Virus record (IMG/VR): IMGVR_UViG_3300048587_001176 | Length of the DNA stretch: 64,000 bases | Reading direction: 5' to 3' (one strand) | Origin: an uncultured virus (IMG/VR IMGVR_UViG_3300048587_001176) | Lineage: Duplodnaviria > Heunggongvirae > Uroviricota > Caudoviricetes | Part shown: one piece after another, positions 8,507-43,473 of the stretch | How the letters are laid out: each line of letters starts with the position of its first letter | Numbering within the stretch: the stretch's first letter is position 1 | The notes under the pieces: model-generated | What the model was told of the DNA's origin: nothing | The model's database searches: none | The model's input: the letters and a program-made list of their open reading frames with translations, nothing else | Program-made: the position numbers and the translations under genes

Positions 8507-8521
8507 AGCCATGCATCAAAA

Positions 8522-9353: not shown

Positions 9354-9397
9354 TTTTGTCCCCAAATTCTTACGGCTTGCGTTTAGCACAGCGCTTA

Positions 9398-9438
9398 ATG
9401 CTGTGGGCATTGACTAACATTTATGCGTAGTGCATTGC
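9398..9438 (+). promoter_or_regulatory. OR/PR region: two operators flanking a TTGACT -35
   Basis: ATGC-tgtgg-GCAT (9398-9410), TTGACT (9410-9415), ATGC-gtagt-GCAT (9423-9435). Confidence 0.7.
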
Positions 9439-10584: not shown

Positions 10585-10585
10585 C

Positions 10586-11620: not shown

Positions 11621-11837
11621 GCTGCCGGTTGGCCGGAAAACCACCGCCCATCTGAACCTGAAGTTCTCCATCGCTGACATGGACCGCATCGAGAGCATGG
11701 CTCGACGGAAGATGTCCCTGGAGAACATGGCCTGGGAGCTCGCTGCATCCGGGTTGCACGTCGAGCAGGCGGAGTTGGCCCGCCTGCTCCGGAACAACGG
11801 TTTCACATATTTCGGACTGGCCGGCTGGGGCGAATAG
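11604..11837 (+). CDS. hypothetical protein
   Basis: 77-aa ORF overlapping the ssb end. Confidence 0.55.
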
Positions 11838-11866
11838 CCCGGCCGAGCCGGGGCTAAGGGGCCACA

Positions 11867-12325
11867 ATGACGAAGAAGGGGCGCGCTCTCTCGGAGAGCG
11901 TGACGGTCGCGCGGTTGAAGCTGCTGACCAAGCTCAAAGACAAGGGGGCGCAGAAGTTCTCGCCCCGCTACACACCGCTGCGCTGGGCATTCGAGCGCGG
12001 CCTGGTTCGCCAGCAGGGCGACCTGTACGTCCTCACACCGGAGGGCAGCGCCAAGCTCTCGTACCACCACATGGACGCCGGCCTGAAGAAGGCCATTCGG
12101 GTGCTGCCGGCCCTTGCCGGCAAGACCCTGGTGCGCACGGCCAGCGACGCCGAGGAGGCGGTCAACGTAGGCGGCGGCTACCTCTACCACACGGAGCCCG
12201 ATCACAAGCCGTTCCCGCCGGGGGCAGCGCGAACGTTGATCGCCAACGGCCTCCTGGTGGGCCGGAAAGACGGCCTGCTCGATGGCATCGCGCAGACCTT
12301 CCGCCTCCCCAGTGCGGGGGTGTAA
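11867..12325 (+). CDS. hypothetical protein
   Basis: 152-aa ORF in the operon. Confidence 0.65.
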   Translation: MTKKGRALSESVTVARLKLLTKLKDKGAQKFSPRYTPLRWAFERGLVRQQGDLYVLTPEGSAKLSYHHMDAGLKKAIRVLPALAGKTLVRTASDAEEAVNVGGGYLYHTEPDHKPFPPGAARTLIANGLLVGRKDGLLDGIAQTFRLPSAGV

Positions 12326-12327
12326 CC

Positions 12328-12912
12328 GTGGCCGAGACCAAGAAGAAGAACGCCCACGTCTGGGAGCGCGCGGCCAACGACTGGTACGTCGAGCCGTCCT
12401 GGGTCTGGGAGCGGTTCTATGCCCGGGAGCGGTTCGAAGGGGTGATCCGCGACCCCAGCGCCGGCATGGGCAACGGCGTCGTGGCCGCCCGCGCGGCCGG
12501 CTACACGGTCGAGGCTCGCGACCTGATCGCGCGCTTCCCCATCATCGAGCGCGAAGAGGACTTCCTGCAGTCGACCGACGAAGTCGACAACATCTGCACC
12601 AACCCGCCGTTCGGCCTGTGCAATGTCGCGCCTTACCCGTACCTAACCCAGGCGCTGAAACTTGCCCGGCGCAAGGTGGCGCTCGTGATGCAGGCGAGCT
12701 GGACGTTCGGCGAAGATCGCAGCATCGACCTCGAGAAGCTGCCGCTCTACCGCATCTATCACATCACCCCGAAGCCCCCGATGCCGCCCGGGGAGATGAT
12801 CCTCGCAGGCCATAAGCCGAACTCCGGCCAGGTCGACTACGTCATCGCCGTGTTCCTCAAGGGATATGAGGGCGAGCCGACCCACCGCTGGCTGAGGAAG
12901 AACAAGCCATGA
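12328..12912 (+). CDS. orphan amino-DNA methyltransferase (probably N6-adenine)
   Basis: DWYVEP, DPSAGMG SAM motif, TNPPF catalytic motif. Confidence 0.8.
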   Translation: MAETKKKNAHVWERAANDWYVEPSWVWERFYARERFEGVIRDPSAGMGNGVVAARAAGYTVEARDLIARFPIIEREEDFLQSTDEVDNICTNPPFGLCNVAPYPYLTQALKLARRKVALVMQASWTFGEDRSIDLEKLPLYRIYHITPKPPMPPGEMILAGHKPNSGQVDYVIAVFLKGYEGEPTHRWLRKNKP

Positions 12913-13223
12913 GCGGCCGGGTCCATCCGACTACCCTGATGGTCCTCTATATGGAGGGGCATCTTCACCACCTGCGCGAGCGCATGAAGGCGCACCACGA
13001 GCACCAGGCAGAGCTTGGACCGCCGACGCGGACCGACCTCGAGGAGCTGGAGACCGTCAAGTCGATCGCCACGAGCCTGCAGTGGATCTCCCGCGACCCG
13101 GAGGGCTTCAAAGCCTTCTGCGTGCGGCTGTCCAAGAAGTGGGGGCCGCTCAATCCCCCGAAGAGGGCGAAACCCGAGCCGGACGACGACCAGGCGCCGC
13201 CTCCGACGGAGGCCGCTTCGTGA
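12909..13223 (+). CDS. hypothetical protein
   Basis: 104-aa coupled ORF. Confidence 0.6.
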   Translation: MSGRVHPTTLMVLYMEGHLHHLRERMKAHHEHQAELGPPTRTDLEELETVKSIATSLQWISRDPEGFKAFCVRLSKKWGPLNPPKRAKPEPDDDQAPPPTEAAS

Positions 13224-15322
13224 GCGAGATCAATTTCGGCGCCATGATGGAAGGTGTCGCCCGCGAGCTGTGGGGCGACCACAATCCGAAGATGTCGACG
13301 CCCAAGAAGGAGCTCCGCTACGGCGAGAGCGGTGCGCGCTCGGTCGACCTGGAGAAGGGTGTCTGGCAGGATCACCGCGACAAGACCGGCGGCGGCGTGC
13401 TGCACCTGATCAAGAAGGAGCTCGGTCTGGAAGGGCAGGAGGCCTTCGACTGGCTGAAGGCCAAGGGCTTCCCGATCCCCGAGCGCCAGCAGCGCTTCGT
13501 CCAGAGCCGCAATGACCTTGGCGAGCTCGTAGCGCAGTTCCCGTACCGGGACGAGCAGGGCAACGTGCTCTACGAGGTCTGCCGCTTCGAGAACGGCGAG
13601 CTCGACCGCGAGAGCGGCAAGCGCAAGAAGACCTTCCGCCAGCGTAGGCACGAGCCGAACCACCCCGAGGCCAAGGGCGGCGGGTTTGTTTGGCACCTGA
13701 AGGACATCCGGCGCGTGCTCTATCGCCTGCCGGAGGTGCTCGCCGCCATCGAGCGCGGCGAGCCGATCGTCCTCGTCGAGGGCGAGAAGGCAGTGAAGGC
13801 CGCGGTGTCGATCGGCCTCGAAGCCACCACCAACGCGATGGGCGCCGGCAAGTGGGAAGACAGCTTCACCGAGTCGCTGCGCGGCGCCGACGTGATCATC
13901 TGCGGCGACAACGATGAAGCGGGGCGCAACCATGTGCAGCTCCAGGCTTCCTCACTCCGCGGCATCGCCAAGCGGGTGCGCGTGGTCGCGCTCCCGCTGA
14001 GGAGCGAGAAGGACGACATCCACGAGTGGGTGGGGCAGGGCGGCACCAAGGAGGCCTTCCTCGCCATCGCCGACGCGACACCGGAGTGGCGGCCCGCAGC
14101 GCCAGTATCTCGCTTCAACGCGGTCGAGTGGTCGCACATGGACGAGGGCGGGAAGGAGTTCGAGTACCGGATCAAGGGGCTGCTGGCGAAGTACGGCGTC
14201 GCCATGATCGGTGGCGAGTCGGGTTCGGGGAAGTCGTTCATCGCCGGCGACATGGGCTTCGCGATCGCGCGTGGCGTACCCTATGCCGGCCGCAAGACCG
14301 AGAAGGGCCTGGTGCTCTATCAGGCAGGCGAGGGCGGCGTCGGCTTCAAGAAGCGCATGCGTGCGTACCGTCGGGAGCACGAGATCACCGAGGAGCTGCC
14401 GTTCGTTCTGCTGCCCGGCGAGCTCGACCTGCACAACAGCGACGACCACACCAACAGCTTCATCGCCGAGTGCAAGGCCTGGGCGGTCTTCTACGGGATC
14501 CCGATCGGGGCGATCTTCATCGACACCTTCGCCACCGCCACGCCGGGCGCGAACGAGAACGATGGCGGCGAGGTCAGCAAGATCTTGGCGCGCGCCGCCC
14601 GCATCGCCGCCGAGTGCGACACCCTCGTGGTGATCGTCCATCACATGAACGCCGATGGGAAGAAGCTGCGCGGGCACACCTCGATCCGCGCCAACGTCGA
14701 CAACGTCCTGCTGGTCTCGAAGCTCGACATCAAGGACGCCAACGGCCGCTGGCAGCGCAAGGTGGAGCTGGTCAAGAACAAGGACGGTGAGGACGGCTTC
14801 AGCTGGCACTTCGTGCTCAAGCAGGTCGATTTCGGCGTCGATACCGATGGCGACAAGATCACGTCATGCGTGGTGGCAGAGGTCGCCAAGGGCGGGGTCG
14901 AGCAGCAGGCCGCCCAGCGGCTGCGCATGACCCCCAACGACGAACTCTTCTACCGCTGCCTCAAGACGGCCCTGCAGAACGCGGGCCAGGACGCGCCGGC
15001 CGAGCTCTCGTCTCGTGGCATCAAGCGGGTCGTGGACACCAAGGCGGTGCGCGCAGAGGTCAACCGAAAGTGGACCCATACCGACGATCAGGACGCATCG
15101 GAAGAAGACAACCGCCGCCGCCGCAACGAGGCGATCAACAAGGCGCTGCAGCGGTCGGGCGACCGCCTGATGAAGCTCGGCATGATCGACCGCGACTACG
15201 AGCTCGGCGTCATGTGGGACTTGGGTCTGCCGCGGTGGGCCACCAAGGCGGAGCGGGTGTCAGAGGACGCCCAGGGAGAGCCGACGAACGAAGATGGACA
15301 GGAGATTGACCTTGGCTGGTAA
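13220..15322 (+). CDS. TOPRIM primase-RepA/AAA_25 helicase fusion
   Basis: VLVEGEK, GDNDEAG (TOPRIM); GESGSGKS, IFIDT, IVHH, RGHTS (SF4/RepA); GTG start overlaps the upstream stop. Confidence 0.9.
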   Translation: MSEINFGAMMEGVARELWGDHNPKMSTPKKELRYGESGARSVDLEKGVWQDHRDKTGGGVLHLIKKELGLEGQEAFDWLKAKGFPIPERQQRFVQSRNDLGELVAQFPYRDEQGNVLYEVCRFENGELDRESGKRKKTFRQRRHEPNHPEAKGGGFVWHLKDIRRVLYRLPEVLAAIERGEPIVLVEGEKAVKAAVSIGLEATTNAMGAGKWEDSFTESLRGADVIICGDNDEAGRNHVQLQASSLRGIAKRVRVVALPLRSEKDDIHEWVGQGGTKEAFLAIADATPEWRPAAPVSRFNAVEWSHMDEGGKEFEYRIKGLLAKYGVAMIGGESGSGKSFIAGDMGFAIARGVPYAGRKTEKGLVLYQAGEGGVGFKKRMRAYRREHEITEELPFVLLPGELDLHNSDDHTNSFIAECKAWAVFYGIPIGAIFIDTFATATPGANENDGGEVSKILARAARIAAECDTLVVIVHHMNADGKKLRGHTSIRANVDNVLLVSKLDIKDANGRWQRKVELVKNKDGEDGFSWHFVLKQVDFGVDTDGDKITSCVVAEVAKGGVEQQAAQRLRMTPNDELFYRCLKTALQNAGQDAPAELSSRGIKRVVDTKAVRAEVNRKWTHTDDQDASEEDNRRRRNEAINKALQRSGDRLMKLGMIDRDYELGVMWDLGLPRWATKAERVSEDAQGEPTNEDGQEIDLGW

Positions 15323-15623
15323 GCCCGAGAAGTACGGCATCACCGCCGTGCCCCACAAGAAGTTCGAGAACCTCTTCGCGTGCAGGATCGCCGTGCCTTT
15401 CGAGGGGGTCTTCTGGGTGGTCGACGCAGCGAACAACGTCGATGTGTTCGCAACTCGGGACGAGGCGATGGCGGCGGGCGCCCGGGCCTTGCTTCCGATC
15501 CTGAACCGTAGGATTAACTTCCCAGCGAAGCACTGGCCGAAACCAGAGCAGGTCGCAAAGCGCATCACCGAGCACGGGGCCGAGGGCCTTGAGTACGGCT
15601 TCTTCGCCGGGTGCGCTGAATGA
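15294..15623 (+). CDS. hypothetical protein
   Basis: 109-aa ORF overlapping the primase end. Confidence 0.6.
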   Translation: MDRRLTLAGKPEKYGITAVPHKKFENLFACRIAVPFEGVFWVVDAANNVDVFATRDEAMAAGARALLPILNRRINFPAKHWPKPEQVAKRITEHGAEGLEYGFFAGCAE

Positions 15624-15625
15624 GT

Positions 15626-15755
15626 TGTCCGTCAGTTGTCCTAGACGATGTCCTAGAGGCTGACGGCGCGGAACCCCGGTGTGCGCGGGGTTCCGGGGGT
15701 CGAGGGGGCGAACAGGCGTGGGGCCAGGTGTCCGGCAGTTGTCCGGAACTTGTCC
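15626..15755. repeat. candidate replication origin: two helically phased TGTCC triplets around a 10-bp inverted repeat
   Basis: TGTCC at 15626/15637/15649 and 15729/15740/15751; CGGAACCCCG...CGGGGTTCCG at 15669-15695. Confidence 0.5.
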
Positions 15756-15802
15756 GCTCCCTCGAAGGTGCCGGCGGGAGGGCAGCCGGGAATGACGACG
15801 GG

Positions 15803-16093
15803 GTGCACGGGGAAAAGGAAAAGTACCAGGTCTATGTGCTCTGGCTGAAGGGCCACAGCATCAAGACCATCTCCCATTGGACGAAGCTCCGGGAGAAGCA
15901 GATCGCAGGCATCGTGGACCGGGCCCCCTTCAAGGCGCGCTCCGAGATGACCTGGGACGAGCGTCAGGCGGCGCTCAACGACATGCAGCGCATCAGGCTG
16001 AGCAGCGACGGCTCCTCGCTCGACGGTGGTATGTTCGATCGTATCCAGTGGCTGATCTTGCCGCTGCTCACCGGGCAGGTGCGCCGTGGGTAA
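15803..16093 (+). CDS. hypothetical HTH-like protein (start uncertain)
   Basis: YQVYVLWLKGHSIKTISHWTKL; the 5' part of ORF 15620.. overlaps the repeat region and looks non-coding. Confidence 0.55.
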   Translation: MHGEKEKYQVYVLWLKGHSIKTISHWTKLREKQIAGIVDRAPFKARSEMTWDERQAALNDMQRIRLSSDGSSLDGGMFDRIQWLILPLLTGQVRRG

Positions 16094-16775
16094 GAACGAC
16101 ACCATCAAGGATCGCCTGAAGGCGCTTACCGAAGGCCGGGAGGTGGCAGCTGAGCTGCCGCCTCTCACCGGCCGCGAGAGCCACGCTCATCTGAAGGAGC
16201 TCCCGGGCTACGAGGGCAGGGCTGCGCGCACTCGCGCCATTCGCGACAAGGTCCGCACCATGTCGGCGTTCGAGGCAGCCGGCGCGCCGTTCGAGAACCT
16301 GCTGTTCACCGGCAGCCTGATCGTCCCGGGCGAGAAGGAAGACATGGGCTGGCTGCGCGCCGAGGCGGGCTTCCGGTTCCGGCAGGACGTGCAAATGGCC
16401 CAGGTCTCGACCCTCGGCGCGAAGGACTTCGGCAGCGTTGGCGGGGGCTCCGGCAGCCGCTCGATGCTGGCGGACGTGAAGATCTACGCAATGCAGTCGC
16501 TGGGTCGCCTTCGCGACGCCATGCCGAAGGGGCGCTATCAGCTCCTCGAGGCCTTCCTGATCAACGACCAGTGGCTGCTCGAGCTGCCGCGCCGGCGCAA
16601 GAAGATGACCAAGCACGAACGGCAAACCGCGGAGCGCAGGCACCGCAAGGAGATGCTCGACCAGGTGCTCTGCGCACTCGACACCGCCGCCGTCCACTAC
16701 GACCTGCTGCGCTACCCGACCTTCCGGGAGCGCTGGCCCGGCGCGCGCTACGGCCGCACCCGGAACGAGGAATAA
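16086..16775 (+). CDS. putative late-gene regulator (Q position)
   Basis: 229 aa; LCALDTAAVHYDL-type C-terminus; near the end of the replication operon. Confidence 0.45.
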   Translation: MGKNDTIKDRLKALTEGREVAAELPPLTGRESHAHLKELPGYEGRAARTRAIRDKVRTMSAFEAAGAPFENLLFTGSLIVPGEKEDMGWLRAEAGFRFRQDVQMAQVSTLGAKDFGSVGGGSGSRSMLADVKIYAMQSLGRLRDAMPKGRYQLLEAFLINDQWLLELPRRRKKMTKHERQTAERRHRKEMLDQVLCALDTAAVHYDLLRYPTFRERWPGARYGRTRNEE

Positions 16776-16779
16776 CCCG

Positions 16780-17340
16780 ATGAATATGACGTTCACCGAG
16801 AAGCAGCTCGACGAGGCGCCGCCCGCAGGCCGTGTCGGCGACTGGATCCGCACTTTCACCGGGCGGCAGTTCTGGCCCCTCGACGCTCGGGTCGACGAGA
16901 TCGACATCCGAGACATCGCGCATGCCCTGTCGATGCTGTGCCGCTATGGCGGGCACTGCGTCCGGTTCTATTCGGTGGCGGAGCACTGCGTCCTCATGGC
17001 GCGCGCCCTGCCGGCACAGTTCCGGTACGCCGCGCTGATGCATGATGCGGCCGAGGGCTACCTCATCGACCTGCCGAGGCCGATTAAGCGCTGCATGCCG
17101 GAGTACGCGAAATACGAGGCGCCGCTGCTCGCCAATATCTTCGAGCGCTACAGGGTGCCGGAGATGCCCTCGGCGGTGCTGGCTGCAGACAGCCGCATCC
17201 TCGTCGACGAGCAGAACCAGAACATGAATGGGTGGGTCACCGGGACAGACGGGCTGATGCCCCTGGGGGTGACGCTGCAGTATTGGACGCCGGAAGTGGC
17301 GGAGCAGAAGTTCCTCGACGCCTTCCTGGCGTACAGGTGA
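16780..17340 (+). CDS. HD-domain phosphohydrolase (YfbR/YfdR-like 5'-deoxynucleotidase)
   Basis: DIAHALSMLCRYGGH..FYSVAEH...ALMHDAAEGY..DLPRPIK. Confidence 0.9.
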   Translation: MNMTFTEKQLDEAPPAGRVGDWIRTFTGRQFWPLDARVDEIDIRDIAHALSMLCRYGGHCVRFYSVAEHCVLMARALPAQFRYAALMHDAAEGYLIDLPRPIKRCMPEYAKYEAPLLANIFERYRVPEMPSAVLAADSRILVDEQNQNMNGWVTGTDGLMPLGVTLQYWTPEVAEQKFLDAFLAYR

Positions 17341-19210: not shown

Positions 19211-20461
19211 CTAGTGGAAGAGCGCCGCGACCTTCTCGATCATCTTGTCGCTCGCGGCGTCCAGGTCGCCGCCGATGTCAAGCTGATAGTGGTAGAATTT
19301 GGCGCCTGTTAAGACGGCGCCCACGTACTCCAGGCCGCCGGCTTTGCCTGGCTGCGCCGGCGAGATCCAGACACCGACCTTGCTCCCCGATGCCAAGACG
19401 TGGCTAAGCACCTGGTACCGGTCGCTCTCCTCGATGCCCGGCTTGTATTTCACTTCGCCCAGGCCGATGACGACCTTGTTCTTCCGGAAGATCAGATCCG
19501 GCTTCGTTGGGAACCGCTTGTTGTCGAGGAATAGCTTGCCGTGGTGCTGGGGCTTGTTCCCGTCGAGCACGGCGATCTTCTGGTCAGCCAGGGCCGCGCG
19601 GAAAACGTTCCGGATGTAGCTCTCGAAGATGTCGTCGAGCGAAAACAGGAAGCTCGGCATCTCCGTGCCGTGGGCGTCATAGGCGAAGCCGATACGGCTG
19701 TAGCCCAGCAGCATCGAGTAGACCGTCAGCGCGCCGCGATACCCGTCCCTTAGCCACGCTGGGACCGTCCCTGCCGCGGCCTGCCCGCCGAACTGCATCC
19801 GCTGCGGGGTGACCATCCCAAGGGCGTTCATCGCCTCGCCGATCAGCTTGCGGTCCTCGTCCCACTGGTCGCCGCGCGGCATCACGTGAAGGAAGGCCAT
19901 GCAGGCCGACTTCAGCAAGGCGTTGGGGTAGATTCCGGCCGAGAACGTGAAGGAGTCCGCGGCGACGTTGAGCTGGTCGCCGCGCGCCAGGTAGCTCGAC
20001 ACGGTGCGCCCGAACTGCACCTTGGGCCGGTACAGGCCGCGGTGGTGCTCGAGGTAGTAGCCCCTGGCCACGCCGACGGTGAGGATCGATCGCAGGTAGT
20101 GGCAGAATCCCCGGGCCAGCATCTCGTGCGGCGGGATGGCGTTCGCCGCCTGGTAGGACCGCAGCACGGGGTAGATGCGATCGTAGTCGGTGTCGGCGAC
20201 CTCGAGCATGCGCCAGAGGTTGGCGATGGGGAACTTCGGCACCAGGTTGAGGACGATCTCGGGCGTCAGCGGAAGGTAGCCGATCAGGCCCTTCACCCTG
20301 AGCTCGATGCCCTCGAGCAGGTCGCGCATCTCGATCTTGTTGAGCTCGCGCGTCTCCGGCAGCAACAGCGAGTGGCCGTGCCGATCGAACAGCTCGTCCC
20401 GTTGGAAGAGCCGTGGGTCGCGCTCGCGCTGATCCAGGATGCGAACCGCGGCCTTGGCCAT
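19211..20461 (-). CDS. mcrC: McrC-family PD-(D/E)XK restriction endonuclease subunit
   Basis: GLIGYL..VLNLVPKFPIANLWRML, FESY, KPDL...GEVKYK...DRYQV; adjacent to McrB. Confidence 0.85.
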   Translation of the reverse strand: MAKAAVRILDQRERDPRLFQRDELFDRHGHSLLLPETRELNKIEMRDLLEGIELRVKGLIGYLPLTPEIVLNLVPKFPIANLWRMLEVADTDYDRIYPVLRSYQAANAIPPHEMLARGFCHYLRSILTVGVARGYYLEHHRGLYRPKVQFGRTVSSYLARGDQLNVAADSFTFSAGIYPNALLKSACMAFLHVMPRGDQWDEDRKLIGEAMNALGMVTPQRMQFGGQAAAGTVPAWLRDGYRGALTVYSMLLGYSRIGFAYDAHGTEMPSFLFSLDDIFESYIRNVFRAALADQKIAVLDGNKPQHHGKLFLDNKRFPTKPDLIFRKNKVVIGLGEVKYKPGIEESDRYQVLSHVLASGSKVGVWISPAQPGKAGGLEYVGAVLTGAKFYHYQLDIGGDLDAASDKMIEKVAALFH

Positions 20462-20464
20462 GGA

Positions 20465-22090
20465 TCAGGCCGCCGGCGCCGCTGCTTGCGGGGCCTCTTC
20501 CTCCGGGTCCTCGTTCGTCTTGAGAATGTTCTCGATCTCGTCGGACACCGCCTCGAACTTCTTGCGGTCGTGCAACAGGGCGCGGTGCAGGCCGAGGCGC
20601 ACGCGCCGCAGCCATACCGCCGCCAGATCGTCGACCGTCTTCACGCGCAGGAAGTTCGAATGGCCGAAGCCGTTCGGGAACGTCTCGTTGAGGATCTTGA
20701 AGACCTGCATAGTTCGATTGACCACGTTCTCCTCGACCTCAGCGGCCTCGAGGTGGCTCTGCAGGGTGGCCGCGTCGGGGTCGAGCTGAATGACCCAGAA
20801 GCGACGGAGCAGCGCGTCGTCCATGTCAGTCACGGAGCGATCGTATGGATTGGCCGTCGCGATCAGCACCAGGTTGTCGGGCAGCACGGCCTTCTTGCCA
20901 GAGAAGGGCAGCGTGAACTCGACGTTGCGGTAGTCCATCTCAAGGTACGTGAGCGCCTCGCCGAAAATGCGCGCCACGTCGCCGCGGTTGAGCTCGTCGA
21001 TGACGGCGACGAACTTCTTGTCCTTGTTCTCGGGCTTGGCTGCCTCGTTGGCAAAGCTCAGGAACAGACGCGAATCGAGGTCGTACTTGACGCCGGCGCC
21101 GCCGACTGCGGGCATGGGTCGAAAGCCCTCCATGAAGTCGTCGTACCCGATCGCCGGGTGGAACTGCAGGAACAGCACCCGATCCTTGTTGCCCTCGGTC
21201 ATCGCCAAGGCGATCTGCCTGGCGTAACGGGTCTTGCCGGTGCCCGGAGGACCTGCCAGCAGGAACGCGAGGCTCTCCTTCGCCTGCATGCCCTGGATGA
21301 CCGCGGCGTAGACAGGGTCGTCCTCGGACAGCAGGGGCTCGGCCTCGCCGCCAGCGACGCCACCCTCGGCCGGCTGCTCCTCGCCGTCCTCCTCCTCGCC
21401 GCCGCCATTGGCCATATAGGCCACCAGCTTGGGCGCCAACTCCAGTAGGAACTCCTCGTTCGTCGGGCGCTCATCGAGCGTCTCGGGCCATTCCACCGGC
21501 GGCTCGGTGAGCGAGAAGCGGCCGAGGTAGGGGGCGTTGAACTCCTCCAGGCCGAGCTGGCCGAGCAGGTAGGCGCGCAGGTCCTCCCAGCTGTCGATCT
21601 CGTCGGGGAAGCCCTCGAAGGCATAGAGCCAGACCAGGAAGTCCTCGAAGCGGAAGTCGTCCGGGATCTCGTCCTCGAACCGCGGCTGGAACTCGTCCGT
21701 GAGCCGGGTGATCGCCTTCTCGCCCTCGATGAGGCCCTGCAGTCGCATCTCGCGATAGCCGCGCGATGAGAACAGGTTACCCCACATCTTGGTGTCCTGC
21801 CGGATCATGTAGTCGCCCTCGAAGGGCGGCTTGGTCCATGCTGGAATGCCCTTGAGGCGGGGGCGCAGCAAGTTGTTGCCAGTGCCGGGATAGGGCTCGA
21901 TGCCGAGCCTGGCGCCGTTGAAATACCGGTCTAGGAAATGGTCAGTCCCGAGCCGCTGGGAGATGTCCACGAGCTCTTCGGTGCCGACATCGTTGGCAGC
22001 GAACACGAAGGCCGGAAGCAGCCAGTTCGCCTTGTACTCCTGCAGGCGCTCAATCGCCTCTTTGATAGTATCGATACTGAAATAGCGCAC
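20465..22090 (-). CDS. mcrB: McrB-family AAA+ GTPase with unrecognised N-terminal domain
   Basis: GPPGTGKT, QFHP..GYDDFMEG, IDELNRG, ATANPYD (NxxD), DDALLRRF. Confidence 0.9.
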   Translation of the reverse strand: MRYFSIDTIKEAIERLQEYKANWLLPAFVFAANDVGTEELVDISQRLGTDHFLDRYFNGARLGIEPYPGTGNNLLRPRLKGIPAWTKPPFEGDYMIRQDTKMWGNLFSSRGYREMRLQGLIEGEKAITRLTDEFQPRFEDEIPDDFRFEDFLVWLYAFEGFPDEIDSWEDLRAYLLGQLGLEEFNAPYLGRFSLTEPPVEWPETLDERPTNEEFLLELAPKLVAYMANGGGEEEDGEEQPAEGGVAGGEAEPLLSEDDPVYAAVIQGMQAKESLAFLLAGPPGTGKTRYARQIALAMTEGNKDRVLFLQFHPAIGYDDFMEGFRPMPAVGGAGVKYDLDSRLFLSFANEAAKPENKDKKFVAVIDELNRGDVARIFGEALTYLEMDYRNVEFTLPFSGKKAVLPDNLVLIATANPYDRSVTDMDDALLRRFWVIQLDPDAATLQSHLEAAEVEENVVNRTMQVFKILNETFPNGFGHSNFLRVKTVDDLAAVWLRRVRLGLHRALLHDRKKFEAVSDEIENILKTNEDPEEEAPQAAAPAA

Positions 22091-31910: not shown

Positions 31911-32435
31911 TTAGTCGAGAAGGCCGATCGCCATCACGGTGACGGCGTATCGGAGGGTCGTGGTCGACCACTTGGCGTCGTCGGTCACGAGGATGCGGCG
32001 GCGCCGGGCTAGTTCGGTCGCCTTGGCGTTCGGGCTGGCATGGCCGGTGGCGTCGAGGACGATGCGATACTCGTGCTCGCCGCTCACATTCAGGGCGCAG
32101 CCGGGCGCCACCATGCTGATGGTCACTCCGACCTCGAGGTTGGTGCCGGGGTAGCGCTTCATGAACCGCTCGGCCGACGCGGCGTCGTTGCGCGGGCCGG
32201 CCATGCACTCATCACAGGCCGAGTACCAGCGGCTCAGTTTGTGCGGCAGCTTCTTCCGCCGGTAGAGCTCGAAGACGGAGGTCGAGGAAAGGTAATCCCC
32301 GACCAACACAACGCCCGCCGGCGAGGCTGCGTCCACTAGCAGCTCGCCGGGGTCGCCGAGGCTGACGTTCACCTCAGCGACAATGGTCTTGGCGAGCAGC
32401 CGCCCCATGTCTTTGTCGATAAGGAGGCGCTTCAT
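31911..32435 (-). CDS. hypothetical protein
   Basis: Start MKRLLI overlapping the vWA gene stop. Confidence 0.6.
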   Translation of the reverse strand: MKRLLIDKDMGRLLAKTIVAEVNVSLGDPGELLVDAASPAGVVLVGDYLSSTSVFELYRRKKLPHKLSRWYSACDECMAGPRNDAASAERFMKRYPGTNLEVGVTISMVAPGCALNVSGEHEYRIVLDATGHASPNAKATELARRRRILVTDDAKWSTTTLRYAVTVMAIGLLD

Positions 32436-33604
32436 GGCTGGATGTGCACCGCGTCCCCGAACGGGGTCTTGGCGCTGTTCTCGGCGAACTCCTTCGCCGT
32501 GCCCCACATCGTCCAGATGACGGGGCAGCTCGGCTCCTCGCCGAAGTCGTAGACGTAGAGGTCGGTCAGGTAGATCACCGCCGCTGCGTTGGGGACGTTC
32601 TCCTTGACCCAGGCAAAGGTGTCGGAGAAGGCGGTGCCGCCGCCGCCGACGGCTTCCATCTTGAAGATGTCGCCGCGGGCATACTCGGCCGCCTTCTTCA
32701 CCTCGGCATCGGCATAGACGACGTGGATGCGGTCGATCTGGCCGCCGTCGAGCAGGGCAGCGACCTCGGCGGTGAAGGCGGCGAGGATTTCGGGCTCGGA
32801 CCAGATCGAGCCCGAGGTGTCCACGGCGACGACAAGCTCGTCGATGCCGTTGGCGATGACGCCGGGCAGGTAGAGGCCGGCATGCAGATGGCGCCGATTA
32901 GGACGCGACCAGGTGGCCTCGGTGATCGACAGCGATCGCGCCACGAGGCGACGCAGCTCGTCGGCCCAGTTCACCTTCGGGGCCGTGATCTCGTCGACCA
33001 GGCGCTGGAGGTAGCCGGGCAGCACGCCGGCGTTGCGCGCCTTGCTGAGGTTGGCGGCCTGCCGCACCCTGATCTGGGTAGCGGCCCGCAACTCGGCCTG
33101 CTTGGCCTCGTCGTGAGGCGCGGCCCCGTCGATGACACCGCCGCATCCACCGGGATCATTGCCATTCTTGCTGCCCCCACCGTCCTTCGGAGGGTCGGGC
33201 ATCCGGGCGTAGATCTCCTCGGCGGACATACCGGCGTAGCTGGGGTCGTGCAGCCCGCCTTCGGGCATCTTGCCGATCTTGGCTTCGATGAGCGTACCGT
33301 TGATGGCGTAGTCGGCCGCCATGTTCCACTTCTTGGGGTCACGCTCACGCCGGCGGATGTGGTGCTCGAGCGCGTCATGCATCACCTCGTGGGCGGCGAC
33401 GAACATCATCTCATCCTCGTCGAGGCTCTCGACGAAGGGCGGGTGGTAGTAGAGGTGGCTGCCGTCGGTCGCCATCGTGCCGACGACGGCAGGGTCGTCG
33501 ACCCGCACCGGCTTGAGGTGCGCAAACAGCACGCCGAAGAACGGCTGCTTGTTCAGGATCAGCCGCAGCTTGGCGCGTTCGATCTTCTTGAGGGTGTCGT
33601 CCAT
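32432..33604 (-). CDS. DUF2201-type metallopeptidase-vWA protein
   Basis: TMATDG, AHEVMH (HExxH), WNMAADYAIN; VAVDTSGS, GGGGTAF, YLTD (MIDAS). Confidence 0.9.
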   Translation of the reverse strand: MDDTLKKIERAKLRLILNKQPFFGVLFAHLKPVRVDDPAVVGTMATDGSHLYYHPPFVESLDEDEMMFVAAHEVMHDALEHHIRRRERDPKKWNMAADYAINGTLIEAKIGKMPEGGLHDPSYAGMSAEEIYARMPDPPKDGGGSKNGNDPGGCGGVIDGAAPHDEAKQAELRAATQIRVRQAANLSKARNAGVLPGYLQRLVDEITAPKVNWADELRRLVARSLSITEATWSRPNRRHLHAGLYLPGVIANGIDELVVAVDTSGSIWSEPEILAAFTAEVAALLDGGQIDRIHVVYADAEVKKAAEYARGDIFKMEAVGGGGTAFSDTFAWVKENVPNAAAVIYLTDLYVYDFGEEPSCPVIWTMWGTAKEFAENSAKTPFGDAVHIQP

Positions 33605-33665
33605 TGGTCTCTCTCTGGTGCACAGGTGCGGGGGAGGGGCGGCGCCGAAGCGCCGCCGCCAGTCG

Positions 33666-34667
33666 TCACATCGTGACGTCTTGGTTCTTCTTCGCCCACT
33701 CGATGAAGGCCCCGGTATGGGTCAGGGCAGGGTCACGCCGGCAGGCGTCGACCACCACCATCGTCGCGAACTCCCGGGGCATGCGGTTCAGGTAGCGCAT
33801 GATGTTCTGGAAGTTGTCCGACTTGGCCCGCGAGGCCAGGGCCGACGAGATGGCGTAGCGGGCAGCGACCTCGTCCTCGCTCGGCACCTTCGCGCCGTCG
33901 GGATCGAGGATCACCTGATCGATCGCCGGCAGCTGCTCGTAGGTACGGAGGAAGCCGTCGAACTCGGCGGCGAAGTCGTCACCGACGATGCCTGCCACCA
34001 AGTGCAGGCGACGGCTCGCCGGCTTCTCGGCGTACTTGGCGGCCTGCTCCCACGAACGCGGCGAGGGGAAGGCCATCGCGTCCGTCTTCTTCATGTCGTG
34101 GAGGAACTTGCCCTCACGGAAACGGTGGAAGGCGATCATCAGGGGGTGAACGCCGCTGGCGTTGGCCCACTCGGTGAACGACTCGAGGTCGGGCTCGATC
34201 TCGATGTGAGCGAAGCGGTTGGCGAGCGCCGTCGGCATGCGCTGGGCTGCCGCCCGGTCGGACTGGCGGTTGCCAGCGGCGACGATCACCCAGCCCGGAG
34301 GCAGCTCGTAGGTGCCGACCTTGCGGTCGAGGACGAGGCCGAAGCAGGCGGCCTGCATCAACGGGGACGCGGCGTTGATCTCATCCATGAAGAAGATGCC
34401 CCGCTCGCCGTCGCGGTCGGCGCGGGGCAGGTCGTCGGGATGAAGCCACTTGGCGAAGTCGCCGTCGATAGACGGGATGCCGCGAAGGTCGACCGGATCG
34501 CGCAGCACGGCGCGGAAGTCGATTAGGTTCCAGCCGCGACGCTGCGCCGACTGCTTGACGATGGACGACTTGCCCACGCCCGGAGCGCTCCAGAGCATGG
34601 CCGGGGTGTTCTCGTCGATGTAGTCCTCGAGCAGGAGGGCGGCGTGTTTGATGGTGGTTGCAGGCAT
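33666..34667 (-). CDS. MoxR-like AAA+ ATPase
   Basis: SAPGVGKS, DPVDLRGIP, FMDEINAA, AAGNR, ALANRF, PSPRSWE; start MPATTI after GGAGA. Confidence 0.9.
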   Translation of the reverse strand: MPATTIKHAALLLEDYIDENTPAMLWSAPGVGKSSIVKQSAQRRGWNLIDFRAVLRDPVDLRGIPSIDGDFAKWLHPDDLPRADRDGERGIFFMDEINAASPLMQAACFGLVLDRKVGTYELPPGWVIVAAGNRQSDRAAAQRMPTALANRFAHIEIEPDLESFTEWANASGVHPLMIAFHRFREGKFLHDMKKTDAMAFPSPRSWEQAAKYAEKPASRRLHLVAGIVGDDFAAEFDGFLRTYEQLPAIDQVILDPDGAKVPSEDEVAARYAISSALASRAKSDNFQNIMRYLNRMPREFATMVVVDACRRDPALTHTGAFIEWAKKNQDVTM

Positions 34668-34683
34668 TGTGATCTCCGAGGTG

Positions 34684-34962
34684 TCAGGATTGACGGTTGA
34701 GGGGCAGGAGGCCGTCGCGCACTGCGGCGGCGATGAGCGTGAGCGTGATCGTCCAAGGGGCGATCTGATCTTTGAGGAAAGTGCCGTTCGCCTCGCGGCG
34801 GACAAGGCGTGTCCACATCTGTTCGCCTTGCCGGGTCAGCACCCAGATGCGCTCGGCGCTACGGGCCGACGCGTCGGTGAAGGTGAGGGTCCACGACTGG
34901 CCGTCCGGCGCAGCGCTGAAGTGCCGCGCCGGGGTGAAGGTCTTGGCGCTGATCGTGGCCAT
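34684..34962 (-). CDS. hypothetical protein
   Basis: 92-aa coupled ORF. Confidence 0.6.
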   Translation of the reverse strand: MATISAKTFTPARHFSAAPDGQSWTLTFTDASARSAERIWVLTRQGEQMWTRLVRREANGTFLKDQIAPWTITLTLIAAAVRDGLLPLNRQS

Positions 34963-40126: not shown

Positions 40127-40264
40127 TTGGGGGGGGTCTCCGTAGGTGCCATGATTGGCGGGTTTCGGCCTTGCAGCCGTCAAACCGGGCCAGATTGCCC
40201 GGTCAGAGGGGTGCAAGTGCACCCCCTCGCAGGGGAGGGGGTGCCGGGGTTGCAGGGGAGGGGA

Positions 40265-40816
40265 TTAGGCGGCGACCTTCTCGGCCTTGGCCTTGGCCTT
40301 GTTCTTCGCGGTGCCTTCCTTCGACGTGGCGACCGTCACCACGTTGCCACCGTTCAGGACGGCCTCGGCCTCAGCGACCAGCTGATAGGCCTTGACGTGC
40401 TGGAGGTGAGCGCCCGCCTTTTCGGCCGCCTTGAGCAGGGCCGCCAGCTTGGCGGCGAAGTCAAATTCACCCTTGGCACCGGCCGACTCGGGCTTGAAGT
40501 CTAGGACCGGGCAGGCGGCCGCGCCCTCAAGGTCGCCCTTCGCGGCCTTGTTATAGGCGAACTTCACCACGCCGGTTTCTTCGTCCGTGGCGACCTTGAC
40601 CTTGCCGAAGGCCTTCGCCCATGCGGCGATTGCCGCCTTCGTCACCTTGCCGCCCATGTTGTCATAGAGCCGCTGAAGGGGGCGCACGTCACCCGATGCG
40701 TCGACATGGGCGAGGCAGGAATAGGCCACCGTGTGAAGCTGGCCGCTGAACTTGGCGCCAGCCTTGACCACGGAATTGATAGCCGCATTGAGCTTGTTCG
40801 AAGCGATAACCTGCAT
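40265..40816 (-). CDS. basic Ala/Lys-rich protein, first gene of the accessory operon
   Basis: LNAAINSVVKAGAKF..LHTVAYSCLAH...GD...AWAKAFG. Confidence 0.75.
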   Translation of the reverse strand: MQVIASNKLNAAINSVVKAGAKFSGQLHTVAYSCLAHVDASGDVRPLQRLYDNMGGKVTKAAIAAWAKAFGKVKVATDEETGVVKFAYNKAAKGDLEGAAACPVLDFKPESAGAKGEFDFAAKLAALLKAAEKAGAHLQHVKAYQLVAEAEAVLNGGNVVTVATSKEGTAKNKAKAKAEKVAA

Positions 40817-41437
40817 TTGTCAGTTTCCTTTGTTGCCATAATTGGCGGGTTTGGGCGGATTGCCCGTTGCGCCGCACCGTCAAGGGTGCGGCGTAAGAGG
40901 CAATGCGCGGGGGGCTCGCAAACCCCCCGCCTTTCGATTTTTCAATCGTGCCATATTTGGCGGAATTGAAATTCACACTATCGCGCAAGCCCGGGTTCAA
41001 CCTTCCCGTTCGGATTTTTGCGTTCAGCCGTTGTGCCGCCGCGCGCCTCCCCCTCTCACAAGGTGACGTGCCACGGTGCCAGAACCTAGCAAGCCGTTCG
41101 GCGATGCTAGTTGCGCTTTTTCCATAGGTTCACTTTTGCCCCTCAACCTTCCGAACCGGCTTTGTCATGCCGCTTCGATTGGTCCGCCTGTTACGGTCTA
41201 GTGTGATGCAAGGCCCTCGCCTCCCCTCCTAACCGTTGTCGGTTAGGCCATCGCACTAATCAGCCTAGGGGTTTGCCCCGCCGATGGTGCCGGATTGTTT
41301 AATCAGCGTTCCGTCTACGCCGCTTCCCTAAAGGTCGCCCGGTTCACAATGTCTAGTCCAACTCACCCCGCGTAATGCGACGTGCATTCCTAAGTTTGGT
41401 TCCGGGCGTTTCGTTCCTTCCGTTTGCGTTTCGATGC
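40817..41437 (-). ncRNA. putative ~620-nt structured leader / ncRNA
   Basis: No credible ORF; purine-rich on the minus strand; many stems (40859-40904, 40907-40930, 41086-41110, 41199-41258, 41337-41407). Confidence 0.5.
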
Positions 41438-41470
41438 TTGTTTCTATGCCGGAATGAATGCGCGATGCAA
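41375..41470 (-). promoter_or_regulatory. leftward promoter of the accessory operon with CI-type operators
   Basis: Minus strand TTGCAT-16nt-CATAGA; ATGC-gacgt-GCAT (41375-41387) and ATGC-gcgat-GCAA (41458-41470). Confidence 0.55.
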
Positions 41471-41791
41471 CCCCCTAGTTGCACTCAAAGCGCATTTTTT
41501 TGTAGGTTTCTGAAAAAGCCTAAGCCGATCAAGGCGTTATGCGTAGAAAATAGTTTGAGAAAAAGGCTTTACGCGCATCGCATAGCCGAGTCACACAACG
41601 GGGGAAGGGTGCATTACGAATCGCAACGGCGAATCGCTCAATCCCCCCGCAACCCCCCTTGCCAGCTGAAGAAAAACCCCCCTCAAAGCGGGCGGTTTTG
41701 CCGTGGTCAAAATCGGCGGAAACCCCTGCAAATCCTAGCATCTTGCCCGACGGCTTAGCCTAGCTGGAACGGGGAGGGGGAAACGTAGGGG

Positions 41792-41848
41792 AAGGAACGC
41801 TATCAGCGCACCAAGGAACGCACTCCCCTAGCTCACCAAGGAACGCAC
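41792..41848 (+). repeat. direct repeats AAGGAACGC x3 (CACCAAGGAACGCAC x2)
   Basis: Copies at 41792, 41809-41823 and 41834-41848. Confidence 0.75.
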
Positions 41849-41977
41849 CCCGCGCAACCGACTCGGCTTGACGGTGCACCCCCGCCGATCACTCCCCCCG
41901 CGACGCAATGGCCACGGCTTGGCGACATGCGCCACGGGGGAGGGGAAACCATCGGGGGGAGGTAGGGCAGGGGGAGG

Positions 41978-42090
41978 GGGTGCCGGGTGCCGTACGGGTG
42001 CCGGGTGCCGTGTAGGGGTGCCGGGTGCCGGGCGGGTGCCGGGTGCCGTACCTCCCCTAGTGCCAAGCCTTGCCGGGTGCGGGGTGCGCC
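41978..42090 (+). repeat. tandem GGGTGCC repeats (four GGGTGCCGGGTGCCG units plus degenerate copies)
   Basis: Direct reading; G-run-rich. Confidence 0.85.
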
Positions 42091-42240
42091 TAGCACCCTC
42101 GCGCCATGCCTTGAGAGGAAACCGCGCGCGAAACAACCGCCCGCGCTACGTGTGGCAAGCGCCGTGCCAAGTGTCGCGCGTCACATGTTAAACGCCGCGA
42201 CCCCCGCGCACCCCCGCCAGCGCTACCCCCTCCCCCCTTT

Positions 42241-42286
42241 GGGTCCTTCCGGGGCACACCCCCACCGCGGGTGCGGCGCAGCGCAT
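42241..42286 (+). other. candidate cos site (cosQ + cosN), predicted 12-nt cohesive end GGTGCGGCGCAG at 42270-42281
   Basis: GGGTCCT identical to lambda cosQ, 22 nt before GCG^GGTGCGGCGCAG^CGC; upstream of a gpA-type terminase. Confidence 0.65.
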
Positions 42287-42362
42287 TAAGTGAGCGGTTT
42301 TTGACCTCAAAAATTGAGGGTTCGCGTTCGTTTTTGCTGGAAATCACGCAGGAGACGGGCCG

Positions 42363-43055
42363 ATGCGCATCGAAGTGACCAAAAACCTCGTGCAATTCGT
42401 GCGTTTCCGGGATCTTCCGAGGGTCGTTTCGAGCCCAAAGTTCAAGCAGGAGCTCGGTCGAGGGGTCACCGACGCGGGTCGAAAAACGCGAACTCAGGTA
42501 CAGAAGGCCGTCGCCCTGCAGATGGCGGTGACTGCCGGCGGATACCGAGGCTACGTCGTCCCCAACATGAGGGGCATTTCGAGGCCTGCAGCGCTCGCTT
42601 TTGACATCAAAGGCTCCGCCAAGGGCTCTCCGATCGAGACCTATAAGGGGCTTCGGGCTCTCTCCCCCAGGGGGAGGGTAGCCAAGGCCATGAACAAGGG
42701 CCGCTCCGGCATCGATCGCGGCTTCATCAAGTCCGGTGTCTGGAACGCGCCCCGCACATTCAAGCGCTCCTTCGCTCAGGGCGGCATGTTCCTGGCGCTG
42801 ATCCCCGGAGGCAACGGTTCAGGGCGCCTGCCGAAGGCGCTCTGGACATACGGGCACAAGCCCAGCCAGCCGCGCGGACCTGACGGCCGGTTCGGCGCGT
42901 CTGGAGCTGCCGGCTTCAAGATCCGAAAGCTCTACGGCCCGGCACTGGGCAAGGAGCTGGACAAGGATCAGTCCCTCAAGACCTTCCTGACGTTCGGCCC
43001 AGCCGAGCTCGAGGTCCAAGTCGCCAAGCGCGTCGCGAAACTGATCCGTTACTGA
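42363..43055 (+). CDS. basic minor tail protein (lambda gpZ-like)
   Basis: Very basic; IRKLYGPALGKE C-terminal motif. Confidence 0.55.
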   Translation: MRIEVTKNLVQFVRFRDLPRVVSSPKFKQELGRGVTDAGRKTRTQVQKAVALQMAVTAGGYRGYVVPNMRGISRPAALAFDIKGSAKGSPIETYKGLRALSPRGRVAKAMNKGRSGIDRGFIKSGVWNAPRTFKRSFAQGGMFLALIPGGNGSGRLPKALWTYGHKPSQPRGPDGRFGASGAAGFKIRKLYGPALGKELDKDQSLKTFLTFGPAELEVQVAKRVAKLIRY

Positions 43056-43206: not shown

Positions 43207-43473
43207 ATGACCGAACACAACGGCCTGCCGGTCTCCGGCTACGCCAAGACCCAGAGCGAGGCGCGCGTCCAGCTCGTCAACGCCAACAAGCTGATCGAAG
43301 AGCAGGTGCTTCGGATCCTCGACACCCTGAAGGACGACCCGGAGATCGACCAGCGCTGGCTGGCGACAGGCCGGACCGACATCGAGAAGGGCTTCATGGC
43401 CGTCAATCGCGCCATCTTCCGGAACGGCCGCGTGAAGCTGCCCGGCGATCCAGATGCAGCGCCGGCCCAATAG
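43207..43473 (+). CDS. acb2: Acb2-like cyclic-oligonucleotide sponge (anti-CBASS)
   Basis: GY..Q.....VN.NK...DQRWLATGRTDIEKGFMAVNRAI fits the Acb2 signature RWLAIGKTD.Q.G.MA..RAI. Confidence 0.75.
   Translation: MTEHNGLPVSGYAKTQSEARVQLVNANKLIEEQVLRILDTLKDDPEIDQRWLATGRTDIEKGFMAVNRAIFRNGRVKLPGDPDAAPAQ

Follow-up and report, generated by a model that had tools for sequence, protein, structure and literature searches.

Genomic context of a long intergenic region in a temperate phage

The window, i.e., the whole stretch of 64,000 nucleotides from an uncultured virus analyzed here, has a G+C content of 65% and bears a temperate phage. A gene for a CI-like HTH repressor is located on the minus strand (8703-9410), and a replication block with GapR-like, SSB and primase-helicase genes lies on the plus strand (10180-17340). 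A long block of minus-strand genes extends from 40816 down to approximately 17830. On its other side, starting at 42363, a plus-strand structural block encodes an Acb2/Tad1-like protein, a small and a large (gpA-type) terminase, a lambda-type portal, a protease-capsid fusion, baseplate proteins and a DUF4815 protein. From 40817 to ~42360, the two divergent blocks are separated by approximately 1.5 kb of non-coding DNA, as judged from the lost third-position GC signal. The cargo of the minus-strand block comprises three DNA methyltransferase-like proteins, an AAA_5 ATPase adjoining a McrBC-like protein, a MoxR-type ATPase adjoining a DUF2201 metallopeptidase/VWA protein, and many small unknown proteins.

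The first gene of this block, in the following gene 1 (40265..40816, minus strand; 183 aa, phrog_1448), shows weak similarity to an early gene of phiKMV-like Pseudomonas phages, and its relatives are labelled Devosia. Related protein clusters (n = 8) are found mostly on Logan or ENA contigs, including two of 27.9 kb and 7.9 kb with 54-56% protein identity, and the neighbors of the protein in the Atlas are viral hypothetical proteins. An AlphaFold model of the protein (mean pLDDT 67.6) had no match in PDB at E ≤ 0.001; the best weak hits were winged-helix regulators of the MarR type (E 0.43). We infer that 40817-41437 is the 5′ leader of a minus-strand accessory-gene operon of 16-23 kb in a temperate Devosia phage.

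One genome end of the phage is probably located close to this leader. A related IMG/VR contig of 74.8 kb carries identical 12 bases at both ends, which align at about 42271-42282 of the window, where the window itself is continuous. Because of these identical contig ends and the gpA-type terminase, the position resembles a cos site whose 12-base overhang has been filled in. The promoter of the leader (see below) is about 0.8 kb away from this putative genome end and reads inward. In phage lambda, the end packaged last enters the cell first; by analogy, and provided that the cos assignment is correct, the operon may sit on the DNA end entering the cell first. Repeats of GGGTGCC are also found, like the probable cos site, within less than 1 kb of the leader, while the replication genes are 25 kb away.

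The 620-nt stretch is non-coding and folds better than shuffled sequences

The original prediction had described 40817-41437 as an ORF-free stretch packed with stems, and both observations hold. Third-position GC periodicity is absent from the stretch, in comparison to values of 0.8-0.9 in the flanking genes. On the presumed transcribed strand, four ORFs have a length of 15 codons or more, but not one stays in frame in both relatives of the region (described below): three gain stop codons and the length of the fourth shifts by 2 and 1 bases modulo 3. A reading of the leader as a series of small ORFs was rejected on this basis.

When folded as RNA, the minus strand reaches −244.8 kcal/mol (z −4.56), compared to −235.0 kcal/mol (z −3.69) for the plus strand, and in either case none of 20 shuffled sequences folded as well. 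All stems named in the prediction, as well as a repeat it had noticed, are present in the sequence; their fate in the relatives differs and is given with the respective structures. The leader contains 193 G, 172 A, 161 C and 94 U. Since it is rich in purines, G exceeds C and the RNA is predicted to be heavily paired, it should be a poor Rho substrate. The motif GGCAC occurs five times on the minus strand of the leader (1.15 expected), and three of these copies are kept in the relatives. Among 12 sequencing runs listed for the region, none has a contig recorded as RNA; four runs labelled METAGENOMIC RNA-Seq gave Logan contigs which were flagged as “probably DNA” and cover the leader and its two flanks only thinly.

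Relatives of the leader found so far

Besides the window, the full region was found in two sequences, namely a phage contig in IMG/VR and a prophage in a Devosia MAG. The former is the 74.8-kb contig mentioned above (G002), which was recorded as L001, L002, L004, L005, L014, L034, L037 and L041 but counts as one sequence; the latter is L003 (G001). In addition, a metagenome contig of 1.6 kb (L009) covers 167 nt upstream of a gene-1 relative and reaches the last 19 nt of the conserved core defined below.

Further members were searched for in several collections. No match to the region was found by DNA search in GenBank phages, nor in plasmids. In IMG/VR, the gene-1 protein and its profile retrieved one contig, and a 31-mer search returned the same contig only. 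A two-hairpin pattern matched eight IMG/VR loci, seven of them unrelated, and two gapped core patterns also matched eight loci, of which six were unrelated and two belonged to the G002 contig. Taken together, the three patterns gave 16 loci, which were sorted into three on G002 and 13 unrelated ones using BLAST, inspection by eye and a covariance model. A 21-mer search of JGI metagenomes yielded zero matches, and the gene-1 protein profile found one short contig there. Among 243 genomes of the family to which the MAG belongs, BLAST detected one true match and one chance match in a CoA-transferase-like coding region; the gene-1 profile likewise matched one of the 243. Extending BLAST to 401 genomes of the order gave one true match and 14 weak ones. 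Eight of the latter were inspected and look like chance similarity in unrelated sequence, while the other six were left uninspected. A covariance model of the 3′ domain (R1) hit one of 151 genomes of the order and none of the 13 unrelated viral loci. Thus, the RNA appears to be confined so far to three Devosia phage sequences.

Conservation among these three sequences is unevenly distributed over the region. In a three-way alignment, pairwise identity amounts to 74-83% in a core of approximately 408 nt (41355-40948), but to 27-46% in the 5′ segment (41434-41356), 49-68% in the spacer following the core (40947-40848) and 55-78% in the DNA upstream of the promoter (41700-41471). Gene 1 itself shows 82-84% identity at all positions and 65-77% at third codon positions. 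Judged by these segment identities, and by 74-83% for the core versus 27-56% for flanking non-coding DNA, the core therefore seems to be constrained at about the level of a protein gene and far above its non-coding surroundings.

A conserved core with four predicted domains

The three core sequences were folded jointly using RNAalifold (alignment A4), resulting in a consensus structure of −134.9 kcal/mol with 124 pairs, 18 of which are changed on both sides. One long-range helix was an artefact of the alignment cut and was dropped, so that 118 pairs in 17 helices were counted. In these, 94.3% of the cells are paired, compared to 88.2 ± 1.1% in shuffled alignments. The 18 pairs changed on both sides among the 118 contrast with 6.3 ± 2.2 in shuffles, none of which (0 of 500) reached 18, and with one to three such pairs in slid controls, in which pairing partners were shifted by 1-3 alignment columns. 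A covariation score of 0.249 versus 0.133 was obtained. Double changes occur in eight of the 17 helices (3, 4, 5, 6, 10, 12, 14 and 15), whereas helices 2, 11, 13 and 17 never vary and are, for this reason, neither supported nor contradicted. With only three full sequences, two of them close to each other, such counts are low in statistical power, and the caution that the tool itself issues for related sequences applies here; the covariation is therefore suggestive, but not statistically strong, evidence of a fold conserved by evolution. We conclude from the comparison of the three sequences that the stretch encodes a real and new structured RNA family of three members.

The predicted core (40948..41355, minus strand) is divided into four domains. 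Domain 1 (41355-41259) consists of 5′ hairpins and helix 3, domain 2 (41258-41199) is a three-way junction, domain 3 covers 41196-41141, and domain 4 (41123-40962) is a multi-branch structure closed by GGAA/UUCC and GCGCAA/UUGCGC. A terminal mini-hairpin (40961-40950) completes the core. A helix joining all four domains is without support in the three-sequence consensus fold. The multi-domain RNA proposed originally is supported, since covariation in eight of 17 helices argues for a conserved four-domain fold. The loops and junctions contain blocks of 40-56 nt without any change across the three sequences, and three GUGA-type loops are present. The longest invariant block includes a hairpin CGGCGU-AGACGGA-ACGCUG (41304..41322), whose six pairs and loop are identical in all three sequences; as nothing varies here, covariation neither supports nor contradicts its pairing.

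The stems named originally fared differently in the comparison. Covariation is seen in two of them: the stem CTAGCA..TGCTAG, i.e., CUAGCA..UGCUAG in the RNA, changes to CUGACC..GGUCAG (CTGACC..GGTCAG in the DNA of the Devosia prophage), and in TAGTG..CACTA enclosing CCTAACCG/CGGTTAGG, both the outer and the inner stem covary. A further example of covariation is the change of ACGGG..CCCGG to ACGCGG..CCGCGG. Other stems exist in the window but were not retained as proposed. TTCAAT/ATTGAA is not kept in the Devosia prophage and competes with the covarying helix GGAA/UUCC. The long-range pairing GCCCGG/CCGGGC is not kept in the relatives; its 3′ copy pairs locally and with covariation instead. The repeat GGAAGGTTGA is indeed found at two positions (41151-41142 and 41006-40997) but is absent from both relatives.

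A conserved promoter and the choice of strand

Upstream of the leader, a sigma-70-type promoter is predicted on the minus strand (41441..41470), with the −35 hexamer TTGCAT (41470-41465), a spacer of 18 nt and the −10 hexamer TAGAAA (41446-41441). The −35 hexamer and a G-run preceding it are invariant in all three sequences, and the −10 hexamer reads TATAAG in the IMG/VR contig (L001) and TATAAC in the Devosia prophage (L003). A consensus scanner missed this promoter because it demands a T at the sixth position of the −10 hexamer; the same scan found no other promoter-like site for gene 1. Hence, the promoter postulated before is real as a motif conserved in three of three sequences. Transcription is expected to start near 41434-41437, which would result in a leader of about 620 nt and agrees with the length originally assumed.

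The core begins about 80 nt downstream of the promoter. The segment in between (41356..41436, minus strand) is A-rich and variable, with the low identity of 27-46% given above for the 5′ segment. It contains a palindrome (41387-41373) which is specific for the window and resembles sites adjoining the CI-like repressor gene. Operator-like palindromes related to these CI-adjacent sites are found in the region at 41373-41387 and 41569-41585.

Doubts about the functional strand had been raised since the G-U polarity of the stems seemed mixed. The consensus energy is lower for the minus strand (−134.9 kcal/mol) than for the plus strand (−118.8 kcal/mol), and the minus-strand structure has 48 G-U cells versus four A-C cells, a count which is biased because the structure was predicted on this very strand. 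Several one-sided changes from G-U to G-C are also seen. However, among the 112 pairs of a mirrored consensus fold of the plus strand, 21 are changed on both sides, and covariation as such cannot choose the strand for this reason. The minus strand is favored as the transcribed strand above all because it is preceded by the conserved promoter and followed by gene 1, and additionally because of the consensus energy and the G-U cells and changes. The doubt is thereby reduced rather than removed.

Start cassettes and terminators downstream of the core

At the 3′ end of the core, on the minus strand, a first copy of a mini-hairpin (CGCCAAAUAUGGCA; 40949..40962) forms what we call a “pseudo start cassette”: in the relatives, it is followed by a degenerate GAGA resembling a ribosome site, but a conserved start codon is absent. 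The core is succeeded on this strand by a GC-rich hairpin GCGGGGGG/CCCCCCGC (40907..40930), one of the stems named in the prediction. It exists in the window, but its place in the relatives is taken by a hairpin of different sequence, CCGCCGGGGG/CCUCCGGCGG. A U-tract is absent on the minus strand, and the hairpin is terminator-like for the plus strand only. Similarly, the nested minus-strand hairpin ATTGCC..GCCGCACC/GGTGCGGC..GGCAAT (40859..40904), also named before, is present but specific for the window, as it lies in the poorly conserved spacer and the relatives have other hairpins at this position.

The mini-hairpin recurs in front of the genes of the operon. The start cassette of gene 1 (40814..40847, minus strand) is composed of the mini-hairpin CGCCAAUUAUGGCA (40847-40834), the ribosome site AGGAA (40829-40825) and ATG (40816-40814), and that of gene 2 (40127..40160, minus strand) of a mini-hairpin (40160-40147), GGAGA and an ATG at 40126. 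The CGCCAANNAUGGC hairpin both ends the core and sits 4-7 nt before the ribosome sites of the starts at 40816, 40126 and 39423. Four strict copies of CGCCAANNAUGGC are found, all on the minus strand, compared to 0.42 expected (0 of 100 shuffles), and the positions of the mini-hairpins are kept in L001, L003 and L009. A looser scan revealed covarying cassettes before the starts at 38565, 37799, 36067, 34667, 24376 and 19028, so that at least nine starts of the operon are preceded by such an element. Its layout is ACC, a stem of 3-5 bp with a loop of 4 nt, about 6 nt, GGAGA and ATG. Between cassettes, covariation is seen in the stems (GCCA/UGGC, CCGCG/UGCGG, GUCA/UGAC, GCA/UGC and UCA/UGA), which points to a hairpin formed in RNA. 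A promoter of the sigma-70 or sigma-54 type was rejected as an explanation of the mini-hairpin due to misfitting spacing, as assessed by eye against the consensus sequences.

A scan detected no terminator-like site on the minus strand between the core and the ATG of gene 1. As the minus-strand hairpins following the core lack a U-tract, transcription should continue into gene 1, and the RNA should, judged from these sequence features, physically be the leader of the operon. Further GC-rich hairpins are present between the first operon genes. In the 20 kb scanned, the minus strand contains a single canonical terminator (24469-24447), which lies inside the operon, and terminator-like sites on both strands number 9 compared to 10.8 ± 3.0 in shuffled sequences.

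Comparison with cataloged RNAs and boxA

The search against Rfam suggested in the original prediction was carried out, and no cataloged family matches the leader. Rfam 15 gave zero matches at the gathering score in the whole window. At a cut-off of E ≤ 10, the region 40300-42400 has two hits at chance level, located beyond the leader (E 5.5 and 6.2), and at E ≤ 5 the relatives L001 and L003 have two (E 2 and 3.7), neither of which recurs in the other sequences. Hence, the RNA does not belong to GOLLD, ROOL, the C4 family, a riboswitch class, RNase P or tmRNA. ARAGORN predicted no tRNA or tmRNA gene in the 64-kb window.

A host-type boxA, the Nus-factor site of antitermination leaders such as those of rrn operons, was searched for as well. 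All seven rrn leaders of Devosiaceae contain a boxA of the form CTCTTTGACA[GT]TGTGAAGA, and the start of the core, CTAGACATTGTGAA, shares an 11-mer with two of the seven, but the 5′ half of this box is unconserved in the three RNAs. The likeness to boxA is not significant, as the local alignment scores are within the range of shuffled sequences (e.g., 48 of 200 reach the window/L045 score).

Possible functions of the RNA

Our main reading, to which we assign a probability of roughly 40%, is that the core acts as a cis-acting control module of operon expression, e.g., by antitermination or by exclusion of Rho. Transcription of the minus strand would produce the leader as the 5′-terminal ~620 nt of the mRNA, and the core would fold while being made and act in cis. 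It would keep RNA polymerase elongating through the 620-nt untranslated leader and the GC-rich intergenic hairpins, with the polymerase itself as its target or by depriving Rho of a place to load, and the terminal mini-hairpin would tie the core to a factor reading the start cassettes of the operon. The conserved promoter, the missing terminator before gene 1 and the long operon with its GC hairpins and the terminator at 24469-24447 are in line with such a module, as are the poor quality of the leader as a Rho substrate, the hairpin shared between the end of the core and the start cassettes, and the position near the probable cos site. The original prediction had drawn a parallel to put of HK022. 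The put sites are cis-acting antiterminator RNAs of a lambdoid phage, which are about 70 nt long, form two stem-loops and function without a dedicated N-like protein; the EAR antiterminator RNA, also acting in cis, is about 120 nt long. Like put, the core is located just downstream of a temperate-phage promoter and heads a long operon containing one canonical terminator, but with ~408 nt, 17 helices and four domains, the likeness is one of position only, and the core is about six times larger than any cis antiterminator RNA known to us. Moreover, the scarcity of terminators, with a single canonical one in 20 kb, leaves a need for antitermination not evident, the invariant single-stranded blocks are more typical of partner-binding or compact tertiary RNAs, and the test for a host-type boxA was not significant.

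These invariant blocks of 40-56 nt in loops and junctions, together with the four domains and three GUGA-type loops, would also fit to a stand-alone large ncRNA acting in trans, the main alternative, which we regard as possible, though on the unlikely side. It would be cut from the leader, e.g., at or before the first mini-hairpin, or stabilized by the hairpin at 40930-40907, and would then act within the first minutes of infection, e.g., as a decoy or scaffold against host defense, or in host take-over. Approximately 130 nt of poorly conserved hairpins and the gene-less “pseudo start cassette” separate the core from gene 1, the operon encodes methyltransferases and other genes resembling defense or counter-defense functions, and GGCAC is enriched on the minus strand of the leader, all of which agrees with a free RNA. 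However, a terminator with a U-tract is absent after the core, none of the Rfam models including GOLLD and ROOL matched, and the window is devoid of tRNA genes, whereas GOLLD and ROOL are usually located near tRNA genes in phages and prophages. Alternatively, the stretch could be a string of independent hairpins with generic roles such as nuclease protection or blocking of Rho and without a joint function. No supported helix ties the four domains together and GC-rich hairpins are common between the operon genes, but generic hairpins need neither the invariant blocks nor conserved unpaired linkers, and hairpins in the neighboring spacer drift (49-68% versus 74-83% identity); this reading is accordingly improbable. 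Slightly less credit still is given to a sensor leader, riboswitch-like or protein-binding, which would switch the accessory operon on or off depending on a phage protein or a signal from the cell. The 5′ position, the conserved unpaired blocks, the multi-branch junction and the mini-hairpin shared with translation starts could be expected of such a sensor, but a conserved alternative terminator/antiterminator pair is missing, conservation is lowest in the spacer adjoining the gene-1 ribosome site, and no riboswitch family matched. In addition, typical riboswitch aptamers are well below the 408 nt of the core. Finally, it is very improbable that the region functions as DNA, e.g., by operators, a replication origin or packaging signals, rather than as RNA. 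Both strands fold better than shuffles, and operator-like palindromes (41373-41387, 41569-41585) are present, with the probable cos site and repeats of GGGTGCC at a distance of less than 1 kb. However, these DNA features are outside the conserved core and the replication genes are far away, while the core stems remain paired on the minus strand despite double changes and via G-U intermediates. Such behavior is a property of a single strand and argues against a DNA element.

Whether acting in cis or as a free molecule, the core might represent a new class of large phage RNA which works as an RNA machine at the start of infection, reprogramming the polymerase or having a role as free RNA. We consider this broader idea doubtful at present. 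If true, the DNA end entering the cell would yield this RNA before any other product, and the RNA would allow read-through of 20 kb by the host RNA polymerase without a phage protein; alternatively, the free RNA would neutralize host defense or capture the factor that reads the start cassettes. The family is tiny, with three sequences from one host genus. In bacteria and phages, large structured RNAs whose conserved architecture looks tertiary are rare and, to our knowledge, most of them (e.g., GOLLD, ROOL, OLE, raiA) are still without a known function. Here, the genetic setting is defined by a promoter, the location at the head of an accessory and defense-related operon near a probable cos site, and a 3′ hairpin in common with the gene starts, so that clear-cut experiments are possible.

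Similarity to other phage RNAs and motifs

A functional RNA carried in an operon leader would have precedents in the immunity RNAs c4 of P1/P7 and CI of P4. These are antisense RNAs of about 70-80 nt, processed from leaders, with targets downstream in the same transcript. In contrast, the RNA described here does not match the C4 family, complementary target repeats were not found, and its core has ~408 nt.

The core resembles GOLLD and ROOL, which are described as large, ornate RNAs of phages and prophages (PMC5737381, PMC12286853), in kind only. It is likewise large, phage-borne, multi-domain and defined by covariation, with several loops of the GNRA type. It differs in its smaller core (~410 nt), its position as an operon leader behind a promoter and the lack of tRNA genes nearby.

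For the start cassettes, a parallel exists in the SAS of cluster K mycobacteriophages, which are short motifs of one orientation located just 5′ of the starts of non-structural genes; about half of them carry an additional upstream inverted repeat (ESAS), and they are suspected to be connected with translation initiation (PMC3203893). The mini-hairpin is likewise short, present in one orientation and placed directly upstream of many non-structural gene starts. The two elements are distinguished by host phylum, presumably by sequence, and by the covarying stem of 3-5 bp in the mini-hairpin, one copy of which closes a large ncRNA.

Start-linked mini-hairpins and recurrent words

In the accessory operon, a start cassette with a common layout precedes at least nine genes; in this layout, ACC is followed by a 3–5-bp stem with a 4-nt loop, approximately 6 nt of spacer, GGAGA and the ATG. 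In the window, the mini-hairpin was located on the minus strand at 40847–40834, 40160–40147 and 39454–39441, and cassettes of this kind stand before the minus-strand starts at 38565, 37799, 36067, 34667, 24376 and 19028. It is likewise present in relatives, i.e., in L001, a piece of the related 74.8-kb IMG/VR contig (1192, 1879 and 2241), and in L003, a Devosia MAG prophage (2971, 3652, 4123 and 5642). The stem covaries. The cassette resembles the SAS/ESAS elements of mycobacteriophages, which are themselves unexplained.

A second recurrent element is the word GGCAC, found five times in the leader compared to 1.15 occurrences expected from its density in the window. The words bearing it, CCGGCACC, CUGGCAC and AUGGCAC, recur in the structured core (41291, 41080 and 40952, minus strand) at conserved sites that are unpaired or at the edge of a stem, as well as in the start cassettes. 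At the very start of the core (41355–41342), the 11-mer GACATTGTGAA is common with the boxA-to-downstream part of two Devosiaceae rrn leaders (L045 and L051); this likeness to leaders of the host family was not significant in a shuffle test.

Sequence elements around the leader promoter

Two copies of CGATTCG and one of TGACTCG, all containing GANTC, are located 120–170 bp upstream of the leader promoter (approx. 41640–41590, minus strand). One CGATTCG and the TGACTCG are kept in all three sequences (window, L001 and L003) within a conserved block, which may hold a second promoter. GANTC is the methylation motif of CcrM, and an N6/N4 methylase gene is also carried by the phage (22094–23194).

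Palindromes of the form YTATGCG-N3-YGCATAR were found on both sides of the CI-like repressor gene and of the leader promoter (8492–8508, 9421–9435, 41373–41387 and 41569–41585). Regarding the leader promoter, one lies approximately 100 bp upstream and the other within the transcribed 5′ segment. The palindromes are possible repressor operators; statistically they are weak, with 11 matches vs. 4.8 ± 2.7 and the observed count reached in 2 of 100 shuffles.

Probable cos site and cargo genes

The related 74.8-kb contig carries 12 identical bases at both ends (start of L033, end of L034), and the window is colinear across this point at approximately 42271–42282. The point, roughly 80 nt ahead of the first gene of the structural block, is probably a cos site whose overhang spans 12 bases. 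After this site, the contig contains approximately 1.4 kb of additional DNA absent from the window. About ten GGGTGCC heptads (GGCACCC on the minus strand), paired and spaced by 18–20 nt, occupy 41977–42085, i.e., 200–300 bp from the probable cos site; in relatives, the corresponding region contains repeats of the GGTGGCACCC type. These heptads may represent terminase-binding repeats or iterons.

Immediately preceding the terminase genes, a plus-strand gene (43207–43473) encodes a small protein in which an Acb2/Tad1 hairpin domain is recognised (Pfam, e-value of 2.6e-15); proteins of this family are sponges for the cyclic-nucleotide signals used in defence. Two minus-strand gene pairs of the RNA-headed operon (19211–22090 and 32432–34805), one comprising an AAA_5 ATPase and a McrBC-like protein, the other a MoxR-type ATPase and a DUF2201 metallopeptidase/VWA protein, are both defence-like or counter-defence-like cargo. 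Within the 20 kb scanned, the minus strand has a single canonical intrinsic terminator (24469–24447; 9-bp GC stem followed by TTTTCG), which may either separate two transcription units within the block or be the site that read-through must pass.
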